This document shows positions 304 through 46,647 of a stretch of DNA of 64,000 nt, piece after piece. Below the pieces are notes generated by a model, which made no database searches, had not been told where the DNA came from, and saw only the letters and a list, made by a program, of their open reading frames with translations. A program made the position numbers and the translations under genes. How positions within the stretch are numbered: position 1 is the first letter of the stretch; every line of letters begins with the position of its first letter. Location: positions 15,334 to 79,333 of the forward strand of contig NZ_JAUCDS010000013.1 in the NCBI RefSeq assembly GCF_034674885.1, written 5' to 3'. Origin of the DNA: Castellaniella sp. (GTDB lineage: Bacteria; Pseudomonadota; Gammaproteobacteria; Burkholderiales; Burkholderiaceae_B).

Positions 304-1281
304 TCAGCTGCGCGCCTTGCGCAGCGCGTGCCGGTACAGCCATTCGCCGATGATGCCGCGCCGGAAGGTCAGCACGCAGATGACGAAGATCAGGCCGATG
401 ACGATCGTGACCGACTCGCCCAGCACCCGGAACCAGGTGATGCCGGTTTCCTGCATCAGGAAGCGGCCGATGTCGCCGACCTTGTTTTCGAGGGCCACCA
501 CGATGACGGCCCCCAGCACCGGCCCCGTCAGGGTGCCCATGCCGCCGATCAGCGTCATCAGGATCACCATGCCCGACATCTGCCAGGTGGCATCCGACAG
601 GGTTGCCGAGACGAACACTACCGATTTGGTGGCGCCCGCCAGGCCCGACAGGGCCGCCGAGAGCACGAAGGCCAGCAGCTTGAAGCGGTCCACGTGATAG
701 CCCAGGGACACCATGCGGGCTTCGTTTTCGCGGATGGCCTTCAGGGCCTGGCCGAAGGGCGAATGCACGGTGCGCCAGATCAGCGCATAGCCCAGCACGA
801 AGATCACCATCACCACGTAGTACAGATTGATGTCCTGGGTGAGGTCCAGGCCCAGGATGCTGCCGCGCGGGATGCCTTGCAGGCCATCCTCGCCGCCCGT
901 GAAGGGCGCCTGCAGGAAGTAGAAAAACAGCATCTGCGCCAGTGCCAGGGTGATCATGGCGAAGTAGATGCCGCTGCGTCGGATCGACAGGATGCCGAAC
1001 ACCAGGCCCAGCAGCGCGGCGCTGGCTGTACCGAACAGCAGGCCGCTGAAGGTCGGCCAGCCCCAGACGGTCAGCGCCTGGCCGCAGGCGTAGCCAGCCA
1101 GCCCCAGGAAGGCGGCATGGCCGAAGGACAGCAGGCCGGTGTAGCCCAGCAGCAGGTTGAAGGCGCAGGCGAACAGGGCATAGCACATGACCTTCATGAT
1201 GAAGATCGGATAGGCGCCTATTGCCGGTAGCGCCGCGATCACCACAATGGCGACCAGGTAGGCAAGCAGTTGTCGATTCAT
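304..1281 (-). CDS. livM: Branched-chain amino acid ABC transporter permease (LivM-like)
   Basis: Hydrophobic; motifs LLGYTGLLSFGHAAF, YFAMITLA, TGGEDG, SPFGQALKAIRENE, LIGGMG. Confidence 0.9.
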   Translation of the reverse strand: MNRQLLAYLVAIVVIAALPAIGAYPIFIMKVMCYALFACAFNLLLGYTGLLSFGHAAFLGLAGYACGQALTVWGWPTFSGLLFGTASAALLGLVFGILSIRRSGIYFAMITLALAQMLFFYFLQAPFTGGEDGLQGIPRGSILGLDLTQDINLYYVVMVIFVLGYALIWRTVHSPFGQALKAIRENEARMVSLGYHVDRFKLLAFVLSAALSGLAGATKSVVFVSATLSDATWQMSGMVILMTLIGGMGTLTGPVLGAVIVVALENKVGDIGRFLMQETGITWFRVLGESVTIVIGLIFVICVLTFRRGIIGEWLYRHALRKARS

Positions 1282-3519: not shown

Positions 3520-4233
3520 TCAGACGCCCAGCAGGCTGTCGAGCGTGGATTGCTTTTCCTGCAGCTGGGCGGCGGGGAATTCCTCGACGATCTGGCCGTG
3601 TTCCATGATGTAGAAGTGATCGGCCAGCGGCGCGGCAAAGCGGAAGTTCTGCTCGACCATGACGATGGTGTAGCCCTTGGACTTCAGCGTCGTGATCATG
3701 CGTGCCAGCGCCTGCACGATCACCGGTGCCAGGCCTTCGGATATTTCGTCGAGCAGCAGCAGGTTGGCGCCGGTGCGCAGGATGCGCGCCACGGCCAGCA
3801 TCTGCTGTTCGCCGCCCGACAGCCGGGTGCCCGGTGAATGGCGGCGTTCCAGCAGGTTGGGGAACATGTCGTAGATTTCGGCCAGCGACATGCCTCCGCC
3901 CAGCGTGCTGCCCACGGTGGGCGGCAGCAGCAGGTTTTCCTCGCAGGACAGCGAGGCGAAGATGCCGCGTTCCTCCGGGCAGTAGCCGATGCCCAGGTGG
4001 GCGATGCGGTAGGTGGGCAGGTGGATCGATTCGGTGCCCTGGATGCGGATCGAGCCGGTGCGCCGGCTGGTCAGGCCCAGCAGCGCGCGCAGCGTGGTGG
4101 TGCGCCCGGCGCCGTTGCGCCCCAGCAGGGTGACGACCTGGCCGGGTTCGACGCGCATGTCGACCCCGTGCAGCACGTGGGATTCGCCGTACCACGCCTG
4201 CAGGTTGGAGATTTCCAGGGCGGGCGTGCTCAT
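3520..4233 (-). CDS. livF: ABC transporter ATP-binding protein (LivF-like)
   Basis: GRNGAGRTT Walker A, LSGGEQQML signature, LLLDE Walker B; ATG at 4233 (MSTPALE). The upstream extension in the ORF track comes from the inserted element. Confidence 0.9.
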   Translation of the reverse strand: MSTPALEISNLQAWYGESHVLHGVDMRVEPGQVVTLLGRNGAGRTTTLRALLGLTSRRTGSIRIQGTESIHLPTYRIAHLGIGYCPEERGIFASLSCEENLLLPPTVGSTLGGGMSLAEIYDMFPNLLERRHSPGTRLSGGEQQMLAVARILRTGANLLLLDEISEGLAPVIVQALARMITTLKSKGYTIVMVEQNFRFAAPLADHFYIMEHGQIVEEFPAAQLQEKQSTLDSLLGV

Positions 4234-4307
4234 GCTGCCCCCTTGGCGCCGCGCGCCGTCCCCCCGAGGGGGAATTTGCACTTAGGGCGGCCTTGCGTGC
4301 TCATGCT
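4224..4307 (-). mobile_element. Small palindromic insertion (58 bp unique) flanked by a 13-bp direct repeat of the livG/livF junction
   Basis: GCGTGCTCATGCT at 4224-4236 and 4295-4307; core 4237-4294 contains CCCCCCGAGGGGG and ends GGGCGGCC; similar to 37977-38047. Mobility is inferred. Confidence 0.6.
4230..4304 (-). CDS. 24-aa bridging mini-ORF created by the insertion (MSTQGRPKCKFPLGGTARGAKGAA)
   Basis: ATG overlaps the livG stop (ATGA 4301-4304) and TGA overlaps the livF ATG (ATGA 4230-4233); 75 nt, open. Translation not demonstrated. Confidence 0.5.
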   Translation of the reverse strand: MSTQGRPKCKFPLGGTARGAKGAA

Positions 4308-5083
4308 TGGGCTCCTTCGAGTTCGCCCTGGGTGGTGCCCATGTAGGCTTCCATGACGGCGGGGTTGTTCGAGACGGTGGCGTAGTCGCCTTCGGCCAGT
4401 ACCGCCCCCCGGGCCAGGACCGTGATGCGGTCGGCAATGGAGGACACGACCTTCATGTTGTGTTCGACCATGAGAATGGTGCGACCGGCGCTGACTTGTT
4501 TGATGAGCTGGGTGACGCGGTCGACGTCTTCGTGGCCCATGCCCTGGGTGGGTTCGTCCAGCAGCATCAGGCTGGGTTCCATGGCCAGGGTGGTGGCGAT
4601 TTCCAGGGCGCGTTTGCGGCCGTAGGGCAGGTTGACGGTGGTCTCGTTGGCAAAGTCGGCCAGGCCGACTTCGTCGAGCAGTTCCAGGGCGCGGGCATTC
4701 AGGTGATGCAGGCTGGTTTCGCTGCGCCAGAACTTGAAGGACAGGCCGGTGTTGCGCTGCAGGGCGATGCGTACGTTGTCCACCACGGACAGCTGCGGGA
4801 ACACGGCGGAGATCTGGAAGGACCGGATGATGCCCTTGCGGGCGATTTCAGCGGGTTTGTCGCGCGTGATTTCCCGGCCGTCGAAGAAGATCTGGCCTTC
4901 GGAGGGAGTCAGGAATTTGGTGAGGAGGTTGAAGCAGGTGGTCTTGCCGGCCCCGTTGGGGCCGATCAAGGCGTGGATGTGGCCGCGCTGGACCTGCAGA
5001 TTGACGGCATCGACTGCGACGAATCCCAGGAAGGTCTTGCTTAGATTGCGGGTTTCGAGAATGGTGGATTGGTCCGTGCCCAT
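4301..5083 (-). CDS. livG: ABC transporter ATP-binding protein (LivG-like)
   Basis: GPNGAGKTT, LPYGRKRALEIA, LLDEPT, VEHNM; ATG 5083 (alternative TTG 5092). Confidence 0.9.
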   Translation of the reverse strand: MGTDQSTILETRNLSKTFLGFVAVDAVNLQVQRGHIHALIGPNGAGKTTCFNLLTKFLTPSEGQIFFDGREITRDKPAEIARKGIIRSFQISAVFPQLSVVDNVRIALQRNTGLSFKFWRSETSLHHLNARALELLDEVGLADFANETTVNLPYGRKRALEIATTLAMEPSLMLLDEPTQGMGHEDVDRVTQLIKQVSAGRTILMVEHNMKVVSSIADRITVLARGAVLAEGDYATVSNNPAVMEAYMGTTQGELEGAQA

Positions 5084-5227
5084 AGTGCCCAAGATGTCCT
5101 GTGTGTCCTGTCGCAGTGCAGCGCCGTTTGGTGGAATGTTTCAAGTATGAGACGGATCGGGGCCGGCCTCCATAGGGGTTTCTCAGGGTTTACCTAACGT
5201 CAAGTAAAAATGCTGCAGTGCGATAGC

Positions 5228-37107: not shown

Positions 37108-37998
37108 ATGAAGCAAGGCATCGTCCTGTCGGTCGCTTCCTCGGCCCTGTTCGCGACCATGTATTTCTATGCGACGCTGATGCAGCCGTTCGATGGCGAC
37201 ATCGTGTTCGCGTGGCGCGTTCTGATGGGCCTGCCGATGATGGCCCTGGTCGTCCATCGTGCGCGGGGCTGGGGCGCCCTGCGCGCGACGGCGCAGCGGT
37301 TCACGCGCGGCCGTTTCCTGGCGGCGATGGTGCTGTGCTCGGCCCTGCTGGGGGTTCAGCTCTGGCTGTTCGTCTGGGCGCCTCTGCATGGCTACGCCCT
37401 GGACGTGTCCATGGGATATTTTCTGCTGCCGCTGGTGATGGTGCTGGCCGGCCGGCTGGTCTATCGCGAACGGCTCAGTCGCTGGCAGGCCTGGGCGGTG
37501 GCGTTCGCCTTGCTGGGGGTCGGCCACGAATGGTGGCGGCTGGGCTCGGTATCGTGGGCGACCGCCCTGGTGGCGTTGGGCTATCCGCCGTACTTCATGT
37601 TGCGGCGGCGCCTGCAGGTCGATGCGCTCAGCAGCCTGTGGTTCGACATGCTGTTCCTGTTGCCCGTGGCGGTTTTGGTCCTGCAGTCCCAGGCGGTCGA
37701 GGCCGCCCGGATTTTCGCGGACCACCCGCGTCTACTGCTGCAGGTGCCCCTGCTGGGCCTGCTGAGCGTGGTGTCGCTGTCCATGTACCTGGCAGCCAGC
37801 CGGCTGTTGCCCATGGGGCTGTTCGGCCTGCTCAGCTACGTGGAACCGGTGTTGCTGTTCTGGGTGGCGTTTCTATTGATGGGAGAACCAGTGGCTCCAT
37901 CCCAATGGCTGACCTACGGGCCGATCTGGCTGGCGGTGGGGCTGATCGCAGCCGAGGGAGTTCAGAAATTGAAGGTGCCCCCACGCTGCGCACGCTGA
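37108..37998 (+). CDS. rarD: RarD-family EamA/DMT transporter
   Basis: SMGYFLLPL, YRERLS, GLLSYVEP; the last codons come from a repeat element. Confidence 0.88.
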   Translation: MKQGIVLSVASSALFATMYFYATLMQPFDGDIVFAWRVLMGLPMMALVVHRARGWGALRATAQRFTRGRFLAAMVLCSALLGVQLWLFVWAPLHGYALDVSMGYFLLPLVMVLAGRLVYRERLSRWQAWAVAFALLGVGHEWWRLGSVSWATALVALGYPPYFMLRRRLQVDALSSLWFDMLFLLPVAVLVLQSQAVEAARIFADHPRLLLQVPLLGLLSVVSLSMYLAASRLLPMGLFGLLSYVEPVLLFWVAFLLMGEPVAPSQWLTYGPIWLAVGLIAAEGVQKLKVPPRCAR

Positions 37999-38090
37999 CG
38001 CCTGCTTGCTGCCCCCCAAGGGGGCTCTTTTGCCTTGGGGGCGGCCCAGCGGCAAAAGGCGCCCCCACGCTGCGCAGGCTGACGACTGCT
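37972..38090 (-). repeat. Second member of the small palindromic element family, one full copy plus a partial tandem copy
   Basis: 37977-38047 resembles 4237-4294 (GCCCCC start, CCCCC-xx-GGGGG core, TTGC..TT.GGG.CGGCC end); 35-bp direct repeat at 37972-38006 and 38056-38090 with 3 mismatches. Confidence 0.65.
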
Positions 38091-38149: not shown

Positions 38150-38851
38150 TCAGTCGCGGTTGCCGCCCAGGACGCCCAGCAGCATCAGCAGGTTGGCGAA
38201 GATGTTGTACAGGTCCAGGTAGACCGCCAGGGTGGCGCTGATGTAGTTCGTTTCGCCGCCCTGGATGATCCGCTGCAGGTCGATCAGCAGGAAGGCGGAG
38301 AAGATGCCGATGGCCAGCACCGACAGCGTCAGCATCAGGGCGGGCATCTGCAGGAAGATGTTGGCCACCATGGCCACGATCAGCAGGATCACGCCCACGA
38401 ACAGGAATTTCTGCAGATGGGTGAAATCGCGTTTCGTGGTGGTGGCCACCGTGGCCATGGCGCCAAAGACGACCGCCGTGCCGCCGAAGGCCAGCATGAT
38501 CAGCTGGGCGCCGTTGCTCATGCCCAGGACGAAGCTGAGCAGGTTGGACAGCATCAGCCCCATGAAGAACGTGAAGCCCAGCAGCAGGGCCACGCCCAGC
38601 GAGGAATTTTTATTGCGTTCGACCAGGAACATCAGGCCGAAGGCGCCGACCAGGAAGACCAGCGTGCTGGTGCCTGGATTGGCGGCCATGACCTGGCCCA
38701 TGCCGAAGTGCAGGCCGACGGCCGCGCCCAGCACGGTGGGAATCAGGGACAAGGCCAGCAGCCAGTAGGTATTGCGCAACACGCGGTTGCGGACAGTGAC
38801 CGACGCGTCGTAGGCGCCGGCGCGAGGTAGGGTATTGCGGAAGTCGGACAT
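38150..38851 (-). CDS. yccA: Bax inhibitor-1/YccA-family membrane protein
   Basis: VLRNTYWLLA, GGETNYISAT, YLDLYNIF; seven hydrophobic segments. Confidence 0.9.
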   Translation of the reverse strand: MSDFRNTLPRAGAYDASVTVRNRVLRNTYWLLALSLIPTVLGAAVGLHFGMGQVMAANPGTSTLVFLVGAFGLMFLVERNKNSSLGVALLLGFTFFMGLMLSNLLSFVLGMSNGAQLIMLAFGGTAVVFGAMATVATTTKRDFTHLQKFLFVGVILLIVAMVANIFLQMPALMLTLSVLAIGIFSAFLLIDLQRIIQGGETNYISATLAVYLDLYNIFANLLMLLGVLGGNRD

Positions 38852-44938: not shown

Positions 44939-45901
44939 ATGAATCTCCAGCAATTCCGTTTCGTCCGCGAAACCATCCGCCGCAACTTCAATCTGACCGA
45001 AGCCGCCCGGGCCCTGTATACCTCGCAACCCGGGGTGTCGAAAGCCATCATCGAATTCGAGGACGAGCTGGGCATCAAGATCTTCGAGCGCCACGGCAAA
45101 CGCCTGAAGGGCCTGACCAAGCCGGGGCAGGCCGTGTCCACCGTCATCGACCGCATCATGCGCGAAGTGGACAACCTGAAAAAGGTCAGCGATGAATTCG
45201 CCCAGCGCGACGAAGGCGCCCTGGTCATCGCCTGCACCCACACACAGGCCCGCTACCTGCTGCCGCGCGTGATCCCGGCCTTCCGGGCGCGCTTTCCGAA
45301 AGTGCACGTTTCGCTGGCCGAGGGCAATCCCGAACACCTGGCCCGCCTGGTGCTGCACGAACAGGCCGATCTGGCCATCGCCACCGAAACCCTGGCAGAT
45401 ACACCGGGCCTGGTGGCCTTGCCGGTCTATGCCTGGGAACACACGCTGGTGGTGCCGCCCGATCATCCCCTGACCAGCCTGACGTCCAGCGCCGCCCGTA
45501 ACCTGTCGCTGGAGCATCTGGCCCAATACCCCATCGTCACGTACGATCGGGCTTTCTCGGGGCGTCGGGCCATCGACGCCGCCTTCGAGCAGGCGGGCAT
45601 CACGCCCGACATCGTGCTGGAGGCCATCGACGCGGACGTGGTCAAGACCTATGCCGACATCGGCCTGGGCATCGGCATCATCGCAGGCGTGGCCTTCGAC
45701 CCGCGTCGCGACAAAGGCCTGGTGGGGCTGCCGGCCGGTCATCTGTTCGGCAAGCACACCACCAGCGTCGCCATCAAACGCGGCGTCTTCCTGCGGGATT
45801 ATGTGTACGTGCTGATGGAAATGCTGGCGCCCGAACTGACGCGCGACCGGGTGTCCGAGGCCGTTTCCCAGCCGACGCCGGCGGTGCGCGAAGTCGCCTG
45901 A
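44939..45901 (+). CDS. cysB: CysB/Cbl-family LysR regulator
   Basis: MNLQQFRF, YTSQPGVSK, THTQARY, DADVVKTY; TATAAT at 44908-44913. Confidence 0.9.
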   Translation: MNLQQFRFVRETIRRNFNLTEAARALYTSQPGVSKAIIEFEDELGIKIFERHGKRLKGLTKPGQAVSTVIDRIMREVDNLKKVSDEFAQRDEGALVIACTHTQARYLLPRVIPAFRARFPKVHVSLAEGNPEHLARLVLHEQADLAIATETLADTPGLVALPVYAWEHTLVVPPDHPLTSLTSSAARNLSLEHLAQYPIVTYDRAFSGRRAIDAAFEQAGITPDIVLEAIDADVVKTYADIGLGIGIIAGVAFDPRRDKGLVGLPAGHLFGKHTTSVAIKRGVFLRDYVYVLMEMLAPELTRDRVSEAVSQPTPAVREVA

Positions 45902-45912
45902 TCCCCTGGGCG

Positions 45913-46643
45913 CTACACGCCCAGATAGGCCCGTCTCAGTTCGGGGTCCTCGATCAGTTGGCCGGCCGGGCCTTCCTGCACGATATGGCCGGTTTCCAGC
46001 ACGTAGGCGCGGTCCGCCGCCGCCAGGGCCAAGTGGATATCCTGTTCGACCAGCAGCACCGTGACCCCCTGGTCGCGGATGGTCGCCAGGCTCTCCATCA
46101 GCTGATCGACGATGATGGGCGCCAGGCCCAGGCTCATTTCATCCACCAGCAATAGGCGCGGGCGCGCCATCAGTGCGCGTGCCATGGCGCACATCTGCTG
46201 TTCGCCGCCCGACATGCTGCCGGCCAGCTGGCGGCGGCGTTCGGCCATGCGCGGGAACTGGGCGTACACCTGTTCCAGATCGGTGCGGATGGCGGCTGTG
46301 TCCGCGCGCCGGTAGGCGCCCATCAGAAGATTGTCCTGCACCGACATGCGGGGAAAGAGCTGGCGGCCCTCGGGAACCTGGACGATCCCCTGGCGGAAGA
46401 TCTGGTCGGGCGTGTGGCCCTGGATGTCGGCGCCAGCCCACGTGATGCGGCCTGATTGGCTGGGCAGCAGGCCGGACAGAACCCGCAGCAAGGTGGTCTT
46501 GCCCGCGCCATTGCTGCCGACCAGGGCCAGAAATTCGGCTTCGCGCACTTCCAGGGTGATGTCGTGCAGCACCTGCACCAGGCCGTAGCCGGCCGACAAG
46601 CCCTGGACCTGCAGCAGCGGCGTATGTGTCGAAGGCGTGGAGC

Positions 46644-46647
<4 letters not shown>
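45913..46647 (-). CDS. livF: ABC ATP-binding protein (LivF-like)
   Basis: GSNGAGKTT, MSGGEQQM, LVDEMSLGLAP. Confidence 0.9.

Follow-up and report, generated by a model that had tools for sequence, protein, structure and literature searches.

Several described repeats bear on the element treated here, a 58-nucleotide (nt) insert between the livG and livF genes in a 64,000-nt stretch of Castellaniella sp. DNA (contig NZ_JAUCDS010000013.1, positions 15,334 to 79,333; the whole stretch is called the window). The insert is best read, with a probability of roughly 0.72, as one unit of a dispersed, at times tandem, non-coding repeat of Burkholderiales. It would be a short junction form related to the betaproteobacterial repeat element (BRE), serving as a translational relay that is selected for its reading phase.

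The BRE was described from Bordetella and the Comamonadaceae as units of 75-91 bp in tandem arrays of variable number (Hot et al., 2011, BMC Genomics 12:207; PMC3110155). Most copies lie between co-oriented genes, and some overlap the ends of open reading frames (ORFs). The element is chromosomal and confined to Betaproteobacteria. The criterion for a copy was more than 70% identity to a Bordetella consensus of about 90 bp, either at full length or over a partial length of about 40-60 bp. The paper proposes no function and describes neither a mini-ORF nor a stop/start overlap, and the term 'stop codon' is absent from its text (PMC3110155). In the literature searched, the name BRE is used by the original 2011 paper only.

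Mycobacterial interspersed repetitive units (MIRUs) are operon repeats of 40-100 bp that follow the orientation of the genes and are often in tandem (Supply et al., 1997, summarised in PMC3184786 and PMC12548453). The ends of their small ORF overlap the stop and start codons of the neighbouring genes (-4), a layout that has been read as permitting insertion with little effect on expression (PMC3184786; PMC12548453). A 2025 review presents MIRUs as mobile elements that insert at start codons, with an internal ORF coupled at -4 spacing (PMC12548453). REPs, which RAYT (Y1) transposases mobilise, are single palindromes of 20-40 nt, typically in inverted pairs, and lie near or far from a rayt gene. 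For betaproteobacteria, Nunvar et al. (2010; PMC2817692) report RAYTs from Thauera only, acquired horizontally.

The unit between livG and livF

Read 5' to 3' on the minus strand, the junction in the window is ...GAAGGAGCCCAAGC-ATGA-GCACGC AAGGCCGCCCTAAGTGCAAATTCCCCCTCGGGGGGACGGCGCGCGGCGCCAAGGGGGC AGC-ATGA-GCACGC CCGCCCTGGAA.... It comprises the following features.

4301..5092, minus strand: upstream gene, LivG-like branched-chain amino-acid ABC ATPase (ORF list; ortholog domains)
4295..4307, no strand assigned: copy 1 of a 13-bp repeat, consisting of the final 3 nt of livG and the element's own 5' end ATGAGCACGC (repeat search)
4230..4304, minus strand: one junction-type repeat unit, equal to a 24-codon putative relay mini-ORF MSTQGRPKCKFPLGGTARGAKGAA, from the 5' ATGA through the 3' ATGA, period 71 nt (ORF list; covariance model R1)
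4301..4304, minus strand: 5' ATGA, overlap of the livG stop and the mini-ORF start (sequence)
4278..4300, minus strand: hairpin 1 in two tiers, outer GCAC/GTGC and inner AGG/CCT, with the conserved loop CCGC (single-sequence folds; covariation)
4259..4273, minus strand: hairpin 2, UCCCCC-UCG-GGGGGA (folding; covariation)
4245..4257, minus strand: hairpin 3, GGCGC-GCG-GCGCC, family consensus GGCGC-GCA-GCGCC (folding; covariation)
4238..4244, minus strand: AAGGGGG, Shine-Dalgarno-like and supplied by the element, ending 4 nt before the livF ATG (AAGGGNG conserved in the alignment)
4230..4233, minus strand: 3' ATGA, overlap of the mini-ORF stop and the livF start (sequence)
4224..4236, no strand assigned: copy 2 of the 13-bp repeat, the spacer end and the livF start (repeat search)
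3520..4233, minus strand: downstream gene, LivF-like ABC ATPase of 237 aa, MSTPALEIS... (ORF; homologs)

A preliminary description of this DNA had reported the 13-bp repeat, the 71-nt period, the 58-nt insert, the 24-residue ORF and an ATGA overlap at each end, and all of these are correct by coordinates. The exact direct repeat GCGTGCTCATGCT stands at 4224-4236 and 4295-4307, a spacing of 71. The mini-ORF begins with an ATG (4304-4302) that shares bases with the TGA (4303-4301) of the upstream ORF 4301..5092(-) and ends with a TGA (4232-4230) that shares bases with the ATG (4233-4231) of the downstream ORF 3520..4233(-). Inside livG, 9 nt 5' of the mini-ORF start, there is a GGAG ribosome-binding site. 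The start of the LivG-like gene itself is ambiguous (TTG at 5092 or ATG at 5083).

The homolog search that supplied the livG/livF orthologs places the nearest relatives of the window LivF among Castellaniella (Alcaligenaceae) proteins, at 93-97% identity, and the source annotation of the LivF homologs is 'branched-chain amino acid transport system ATP-binding protein'. Exact-product look-ups for the window LivF and LivG gave no match. At the orthologous locus L001, Pfam assigns PF00005 with PF12399 (BCA_ABC_TP_C), then PF00005, then Peripla_BP_6 and BPD_transp_2. Elsewhere in the window, bases 46644-46647 read ATGA on the minus strand, and one ORF ends there.

Taken by itself, the junction resembles a one-off slipped or templated duplication of the livG/livF boundary with 58 nt of filler, unique to this lineage. 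The exact 13-bp repeat fits such an event, and the insert (4237-4294) occurs just once in the 64-kb window when up to 3 mismatches are allowed, with none of 100 shuffles matching. Against a local duplication stand over 150 homologous units found elsewhere, some of them at other junctions and in other genera, which refute it and leave it with practically no probability. A single 13-mer repeated within 100 nt is only weakly surprising for 64 kb; chance is discarded as an explanation because of the family-level evidence.

The 13-bp repeat had been taken for a target duplication and the insert for something like a MITE (a miniature transposable element with inverted repeats), and neither part of that proposal survives. 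ATGAGCACGC is the conserved 5' end of the element, because the same sequence stands at unrelated loci of other genera. Ten of the 13 repeated bases thus belong to the element itself, and the GCAC of ATGAGCACGC pairs with a GTGC 16 nt downstream, inside hairpin 1. What recurs family-wide at the 3' side is ATGA only, plus 0-4 further nt. The longer 3' match in the window arises because livF itself begins ATGAGCAC in Castellaniella and three spacer bases coincide; in the empty L001 allele, the livF start reads GCATGAGCACG. The units lack terminal inverted repeats at their ends, form direct tandem arrays and share only ATGA between their two ends. A MITE with a target-site duplication of fixed length is therefore ruled out.

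A repeat family on coupled gene junctions

The proposal that the insert belongs to a non-autonomous repeat family on coupled gene junctions is borne out by two scans and a covariance model. The first scan used an exact 22-nt core pattern with 20 specified bases. Over 185,579 species genomes it matched 14 loci, which belong to Castellaniella, Variovorax, Piscinibacter, Ideonella, Rubrivivax and other Burkholderiales. Twelve of these hold a complete unit between two genes (ATGAGCACGC, about 24 codons, then AAGGGGGnnnATGA), and the loci L007 and L013 hold a longer variant, which likewise has an ATGA at each end. The second scan searched metagenome contigs with a pattern taken from the other half of the unit and found at least 120 loci, many with tandem units spaced 71-78 nt. 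Covariance model R1, built from 22 gapless junction units with a structure given by hand, has 118 matches in 580 kb of collected sequence. It scores the window unit, which aligns with 76 other units, at 66 bits (E 6e-14).

About 150 units were gathered in total from Burkholderiales genomes and metagenomes. All genome matches classified below phylum are betaproteobacteria and all named genera are Burkholderiales, while a scan of 2.9 million viral contigs returned no match. By a strict anchor, 16 of 132 loci carry tandem arrays of 2-3 units, in which each unit has its own mini-ORF linked to the next via an internal ATGA. The window locus has a single unit.

The flanking pairs assigned by Pfam in named genomes are a [2Fe-2S] small subunit with a molybdopterin large subunit, MurG/MurC, L4/L23, TrpB/TrpA and NadA/NadC. 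Partner genes of this kind usually show stop/start overlaps and translational coupling (also reviewed in PMC12548453). The same junction is occupied across genera at the CoxS/L-like pair (L008, L014, L016 and L106) and at MurG/MurC (L009 and L010). At the rplD (L4)/rplW (L23) junction, a unit is present in three different Burkholderiales (L011, L019 and L092). The rplD/rplW operon is among the most highly expressed and tightly coupled.

Codon periodicity places the units at the gene boundaries. The test used G+C content at third codon positions (GC3) in the 70 unique solitary copies whose flanks reach 180 nt or more. The upstream coding frame ends in the unit's 5' TGA in 58 copies, the downstream coding frame begins at the first NTG after AAGGGNG in 55, and both hold in 46, where chance predicts one third for each. 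In 48 of 71 copies, versus 32 expected, a Shine-Dalgarno-like 4-mer lies before the 5' NTG of the unit. This is the pattern to expect if the mini-ORF now used what had been the downstream gene's ribosome-binding site. The placement of the units could come from targeting of such junctions or from survival at junctions only.

Empty junctions in relatives, also anticipated from the window, appear in the ortholog comparison. The livG/livF overlap is a plain ATGA with no unit in the Castellaniella assemblies L001, L002 and L003. The occupied Castellaniella alleles are those of the window, of L004/L005, and of L012, L007 and L013, the latter three from the genome scan. L004/L005 carry the unit at the same position and at the same length, with 11 differences over 67 interior bases and an intact ORF, MSTPGRPKCEFPLGETARSAKGAS. 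The longer variant occurs in Castellaniella metagenome-assembled genomes (L007:7242-7435, minus strand; L013:2056-2249, plus strand) and has about 80 extra nt nested in hairpin 3 (GACCGGACGCAGGGCAGTCCC.GCGGACTGACTTGCGCC...). Its frame is open over 50 codons, both ATGA overlaps are kept, and the two ATGs lie 149 nt apart, a 3n+2 distance.

A tree of the flanking coding sequences makes the empty L001 sister to the occupied L013 (support 96/96), leaves the remainder unresolved and sets the empty L002 as the most distant. At least two events are therefore required, either a gain and a loss or two gains. The occupied alleles also encode a LivF that is 2-3 codons shorter (MSTPALE, MSAALE, MSSPALD, MTAPALE; window 4210-4233) than that of the empty L001 and L002 (MSTNTPALE, MNSSTPALE). 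From these alignments, the LivF N-terminus seems to have been remodelled by the insertion or by later adjustment.

Units across the family follow one order: 5' NTGA, hairpin 1, hairpin 2, hairpin 3, AAGGGNG, a spacer of 3-7 nt and usually a second NTGA. In 81 unique loci the 5' 4-mer is ATGA (66) or GTGA (15), and the 3' 4-mer is ATGA in 60, GTGA in 7 and TTGA in 6. AAGGGNG is predicted to act as a ribosome-binding site.

The outer stem of hairpin 1 has 4-9 bp and depends on the subfamily (GCAC/GTGC, GTGC/GCAC, GAGCGCC/GGCGCTC, GAACGCC/GGCGTTC, GATCGCC/GGCGATC, GAGCCCTCC/GGAGGGCTC and GAGCCATCC/GGATGGCTC). Its inner stem has 3 bp (GGG/CCC, CGG/CCG, GAA/TTC, GAG/CTC or AGG/CCT) and closes a conserved CCGC(U) loop. 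Folding 66 distinct 5' segments one by one supports this hairpin, which RNAalifold on a MAFFT alignment missed because of the varying stem lengths. Hairpin 2 has the family form UCCCNC-loop-GN'GGGA, and its fifth pair covaries (CG in 67, UA in 23, GC in 20; unpaired in 5). Hairpin 3 has the form GGCGC-GNA-GCGCC; it is partly fixed by the metagenome search pattern, so that conservation there is uninformative and hairpins 1 and 2 carry the evidence.

With the other units realigned to R1, changes on both sides occur at 18 of 21 pairs, and at every pair of helices 1-4. The covariation score is 0.244 versus 0.064 in shuffles, none of 500 of which reaches 0.244, and slid controls stay at or below 0.028. 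Rfam has no family at the window locus (E up to 10) nor in five loci with consensus units. A marginal match of the model in the window, at 45894-45975, is ordinary coding sequence and was rejected as a copy.

Two further observations concern unit structure. Near L057:~460-490 (minus strand), ATGAGCGCCGCCCAATGA comes after a full unit; it joins the first 13 bases of a unit to its last 5 and is possibly the deletion footprint of a second unit. Six loci (L048, L064, L069, L101, L120 and L124) carry another class of repeat that has only the 3' module in common (CGTCTCCCTCCCCCTTGAGGGGAGGGACGGCGCGAAGCGCCAAGGGTGGGGGT), lacks the 5' NTGA and lies off the junctions. This suggests that these repeats are modular, or mosaic, as in BIMEs.

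At orthologous occupied junctions, the interior of the element is 82-97% identical versus 61-86% at the third codon positions of the flanks; for L011 and L019 at the L4/L23 junction, the figures are 97% and 61-79%. Either the interior is under purifying selection, which fits the covarying hairpins, or copies have been replaced or homogenised.

These data bear on the possibility that the element is a cis-regulatory RNA of benefit to the host, whose hairpins tune the operon, for example by masking the downstream ribosome-binding site or start so that LivF comes from coupled ribosomes alone, or act as an mRNA stabiliser or processing site, like the operon REPs of E. coli. Strong hairpin covariation, an interior more conserved than the synonymous sites of the flanks, and the filling of the same junctions in different genera (L4/L23, CoxS/L-like, MurG/MurC) would all suit such a role. 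RNAalifold also pairs the ribosome-binding site (GGGNGC) with a conserved stretch of hairpin 1 (GCCGCCC), and the outer stem of long-stem variants takes in the G of the start ATG and the GA of the stop TGA. The flanking genes, however, have no function in common, the tandem arrays vary, and close relatives lack the element. The long-range helix with the ribosome-binding site is almost without two-sided changes, and the window copy folds no better than its shuffles in minimum free energy (z = -0.51). Single-sequence folding energy is uninformative at such GC content, and covariation carries the evidence. A host-beneficial RNA is unlikely as the primary explanation; it is compatible with a relay and differs only in the beneficiary.

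Reading phase and a putative relay

The preliminary description held that stop/start overlaps are kept on both sides, which is so in most copies, and proposed tabulating the period modulo 3. Measured from the 5' NTGA to the first NTG past AAGGGNG, the length is 2 mod 3 in 58 of the 72 unique solitary copies, 0 mod 3 in 9 and 1 mod 3 in 5. An open ORF that terminates exactly on the overlap is present in 55 of the 72. Among units with a 5' NTGA, 98 of 109 ORFs end on an NTGA (ATGA 72, GTGA 21, TTGA 5). Unit lengths form a ladder with rungs of 3 nt: in 81 unique loci they are 71 (21 loci), 74 (24), 77 (9), 80 (3) and 83 (1).

The conserved 3' half is read in two frames, frame A as ...LPLGGTARSAKGA and frame B as ...LLEGRRAAPRVHQ. 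Frame A units have a 5' part of 45, 48 or 51 nt and a 26-nt tail, and frame B units a 5' part of 44, 47 or 50 nt and a 27-nt tail. The tail compensates the 5' part by 1 nt, and the total therefore stays 3n+2. The third frame is used where a unit continues in frame into the next unit or into the downstream protein. The rarest class is 1 mod 3; there, a translated bridge would enter the downstream gene in the wrong frame.

Fusions of units in frame to downstream proteins do exist and would pass for N-terminal extensions of the GRPK...PLGG type, similar to those that the preliminary description mentioned for Burkholderiales N-termini. Units of the 0 mod 3 class are fused in frame to a LivF-like protein (L033) and a LivG-like protein (L123), and likewise in L062, L029, L038, L046, L099 and L113. 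Besides the LivF- and LivG-like proteins, the partners are other ABC ATPases and one lipoprotein precursor, and gene prediction would give the units as N-terminal extensions such as MSHPPGRPKDGSLPPGGTARSAKGAP-.

Together, the phase bias and the frame compensation argue that what is selected is an open frame in the correct phase, not the peptide. A functional micropeptide of 24 residues would account for the keeping of the ORF in most copies and for the likeness of the frame A peptides (GRPK..PLGGTARSAKG). That likeness follows, though, from the conservation of nucleotides and hairpins, and one nucleotide sequence read in two frames across copies, and in a third in the fusions, gives unrelated peptides. 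Pfam searches with single- and multi-unit peptides returned nothing credible. A working peptide is accordingly disfavoured and very improbable. Literature searches on the peptide and nucleotide strings gave no result, nor did those on REP/RAYT in Betaproteobacteria.

Translation is the only explanation seen for the conservation of phase, as judged from the sequences. The alternative is an untranslated, selfish repeat of the REP/BIME kind, in which each ATGA end is needed singly, one as the upstream stop and one as the downstream start, and the 3n+2 lengths are inherited from a few founders. Most copies do fall in three length classes (71, 74 and 77) that could descend from few founders, GC-rich sequence seldom has stops in any frame, and classic BRE copies such as that at 37970-38059 lack the ORF layout. 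A few founders sit poorly with the five rungs of the ladder, the frame-compensated A and B forms, the 149-nt derivative that is still in phase, the rarity of the out-of-frame class (5 of 72) and the enrichment of a Shine-Dalgarno-like motif before the 5' NTG. An untranslated repeat is thus quite unlikely.

The translational relay from LivG to LivF, by comparison, is judged probable from these patterns. The unit would sit on the former ATGA stop/start overlap of two co-translated genes, with the upstream gene retaining its TGA stop and the downstream gene retaining its ATG start and gaining a new ribosome-binding site. A ribosome terminating livG would restart on the overlapping AUG, read 24 codons through the hairpins and melt them, and then terminate on the UGA that overlaps the livF AUG and restart there. 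The restart at the livF AUG would keep LivF translation coupled to that of LivG. The peptide would be functionless, and selection would act on the phase (a length of 3n+2) and on the open frame. The hairpins would be kept for another reason, which may be propagation of the element, RNA stability or a masked start site that leaves initiation to coupled ribosomes alone. Hairpin 1 may mask the start site, or GCCGCCC the ribosome-binding site. The element would then be a tolerated genomic passenger like the mycobacterial MIRUs, probably mobile or recombining.

Several points weigh against the relay. About 20% of the solitary copies are off-phase, and about 20 anchors have no 5' NTGA. The phase bias has a chi-square p of about 2e-16, but copies of the same length share ancestry, so that the independent insertions and deletions behind the ladder are far fewer than the copies and such p-values overstate the case. 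Confidence in the relay is held at probable because of this small number of independent events. Both search patterns fixed part of the sequence, which biases the sample to well-conserved units. In the model alignment 94.3% of cells are paired versus 82.0% in shuffles, a percentage that is inflated because the structural alignment is fitted to the model. The high conservation of the interior could also stem from recent spread or gene conversion instead of selection.

A bolder possibility is that the junction form is a phase-aware homing element, which enters NTGA overlaps through its hairpins or through microhomology and brings its own start, ribosome-binding site and 3n+2 relay frame, so that downstream initiation depends strictly on the upstream ribosome. 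This is doubtful. Were it true, the element would be a natural, portable cassette for translational coupling, spread over a whole order in operons as essential as those for ribosomal proteins, mur, trp, nad and liv.

Relation to BRE, MIRUs and REPs

The preliminary description favoured an undescribed system. That view is not upheld, as the family is related to the published BRE and its layout is that of MIRUs. Nor is the insert the only copy in the window at the level of the superfamily, since the window also holds a classic BRE.

37970..38059, minus strand: classic BRE unit in a convergent intergenic region, without ATGA ends (R1 43.9 bits, E 2e-8)

This unit is identical to the published Bordetella pertussis BRE at 69 of 80 positions (86%). 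Model R1 was built from junction units only and still detects it, which indicates homology at the profile level. On the same strand, the BRE is preceded by the tail of another, GCGCAGCGTGGGGGCGCC (37970-38090), and it lies just 3' of a terminator-like GGCGGCCTTCGGGCCGCC with T7 that belongs to the gene ending at 38150. It also overlaps the final ~9 codons of the opposite-strand ORF 37108..37998, and the C-terminus of that protein is therefore repeat-derived.

The junction form and BRE share a common core, GGCCGCCC-AAG...CCCCCTYGGGGGG, and a GCGCAGCG...GGGGG tail. Both are found in Alcaligenaceae and Comamonadaceae, are GC-rich and about 70-90 bp long, lie mostly between co-oriented genes and form tandem arrays of variable number. 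Over the core only, the window unit matches the BRE consensus at 29 of 35 positions (83%) and the junction consensus matches it at 32 of 42 (76%). These identities exceed the 70% asked of a BRE copy, over a length at or below the 'partial' range, and the 3' third is unalignable. The junction form is shorter, with a period of 71 in the window and family modes of 71, 74 and 77, compared with 75-91 bp. It lacks the GCCCGC-ACA-GCGGGC hairpin, and a GC outer stem that begins in ATGAGC replaces the T/A-rich outer stem of BRE. In addition, it has the predicted AAGGGNG ribosome-binding site and an NTGA at both sides. On sequence grounds, the family is a junction-adapted relative of BRE and not BRE in the strict sense of the paper.

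With MIRUs, the junction units share their place between co-oriented operon genes and the orientation of those genes. The ORF of the unit overlaps the upstream stop and the downstream start (-4) in the window and in 55 of 72 copies. MIRUs occur in another host phylum, and the likeness is one of layout, with no known relationship in sequence; given phylum and composition, homology is unlikely. Unlike MIRUs, the junction units have three covarying hairpins and a predicted ribosome-binding site of their own. To our knowledge, the use of one conserved sequence in two frames has not been described for MIRUs. The working principle is thus not new, given the MIRU precedent; the family and its signatures are.

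The resemblance to REPs, BIMEs and REPINs lies in GC-rich hairpin repeats placed between genes within operons, and the covariation of the junction units is consistent with recognition of a folded strand. In contrast to REPs and the REPIN-RAYT system, the junction units are 71-77 nt long, have three hairpins and are always direct tandems where arrayed. The REP2 repeats of Neisseria carry a promoter and lie upstream of genes, not on stop/start overlaps, and no relay ORF is described for them (PMC3184786).

The 3-nt ladder and the frame compensation are sequence signatures of selection on reading phase. For BRE, the family gives a first functional lead, none having appeared since 2011. In Burkholderiales annotations, it also accounts for tiny 'hypothetical' ORFs and for N-terminal extensions that are spurious. 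The parallel with MIRUs suggests that their strategy has arisen more than one time in evolution.

Stop/start overlaps at operon junctions set the ratios of subunits and are for that reason regarded as fragile. Across a bacterial order, even between ribosomal protein genes, the units sit at just such junctions, and they offer a natural system in which to study how termination-reinitiation coupling works across structured RNA.

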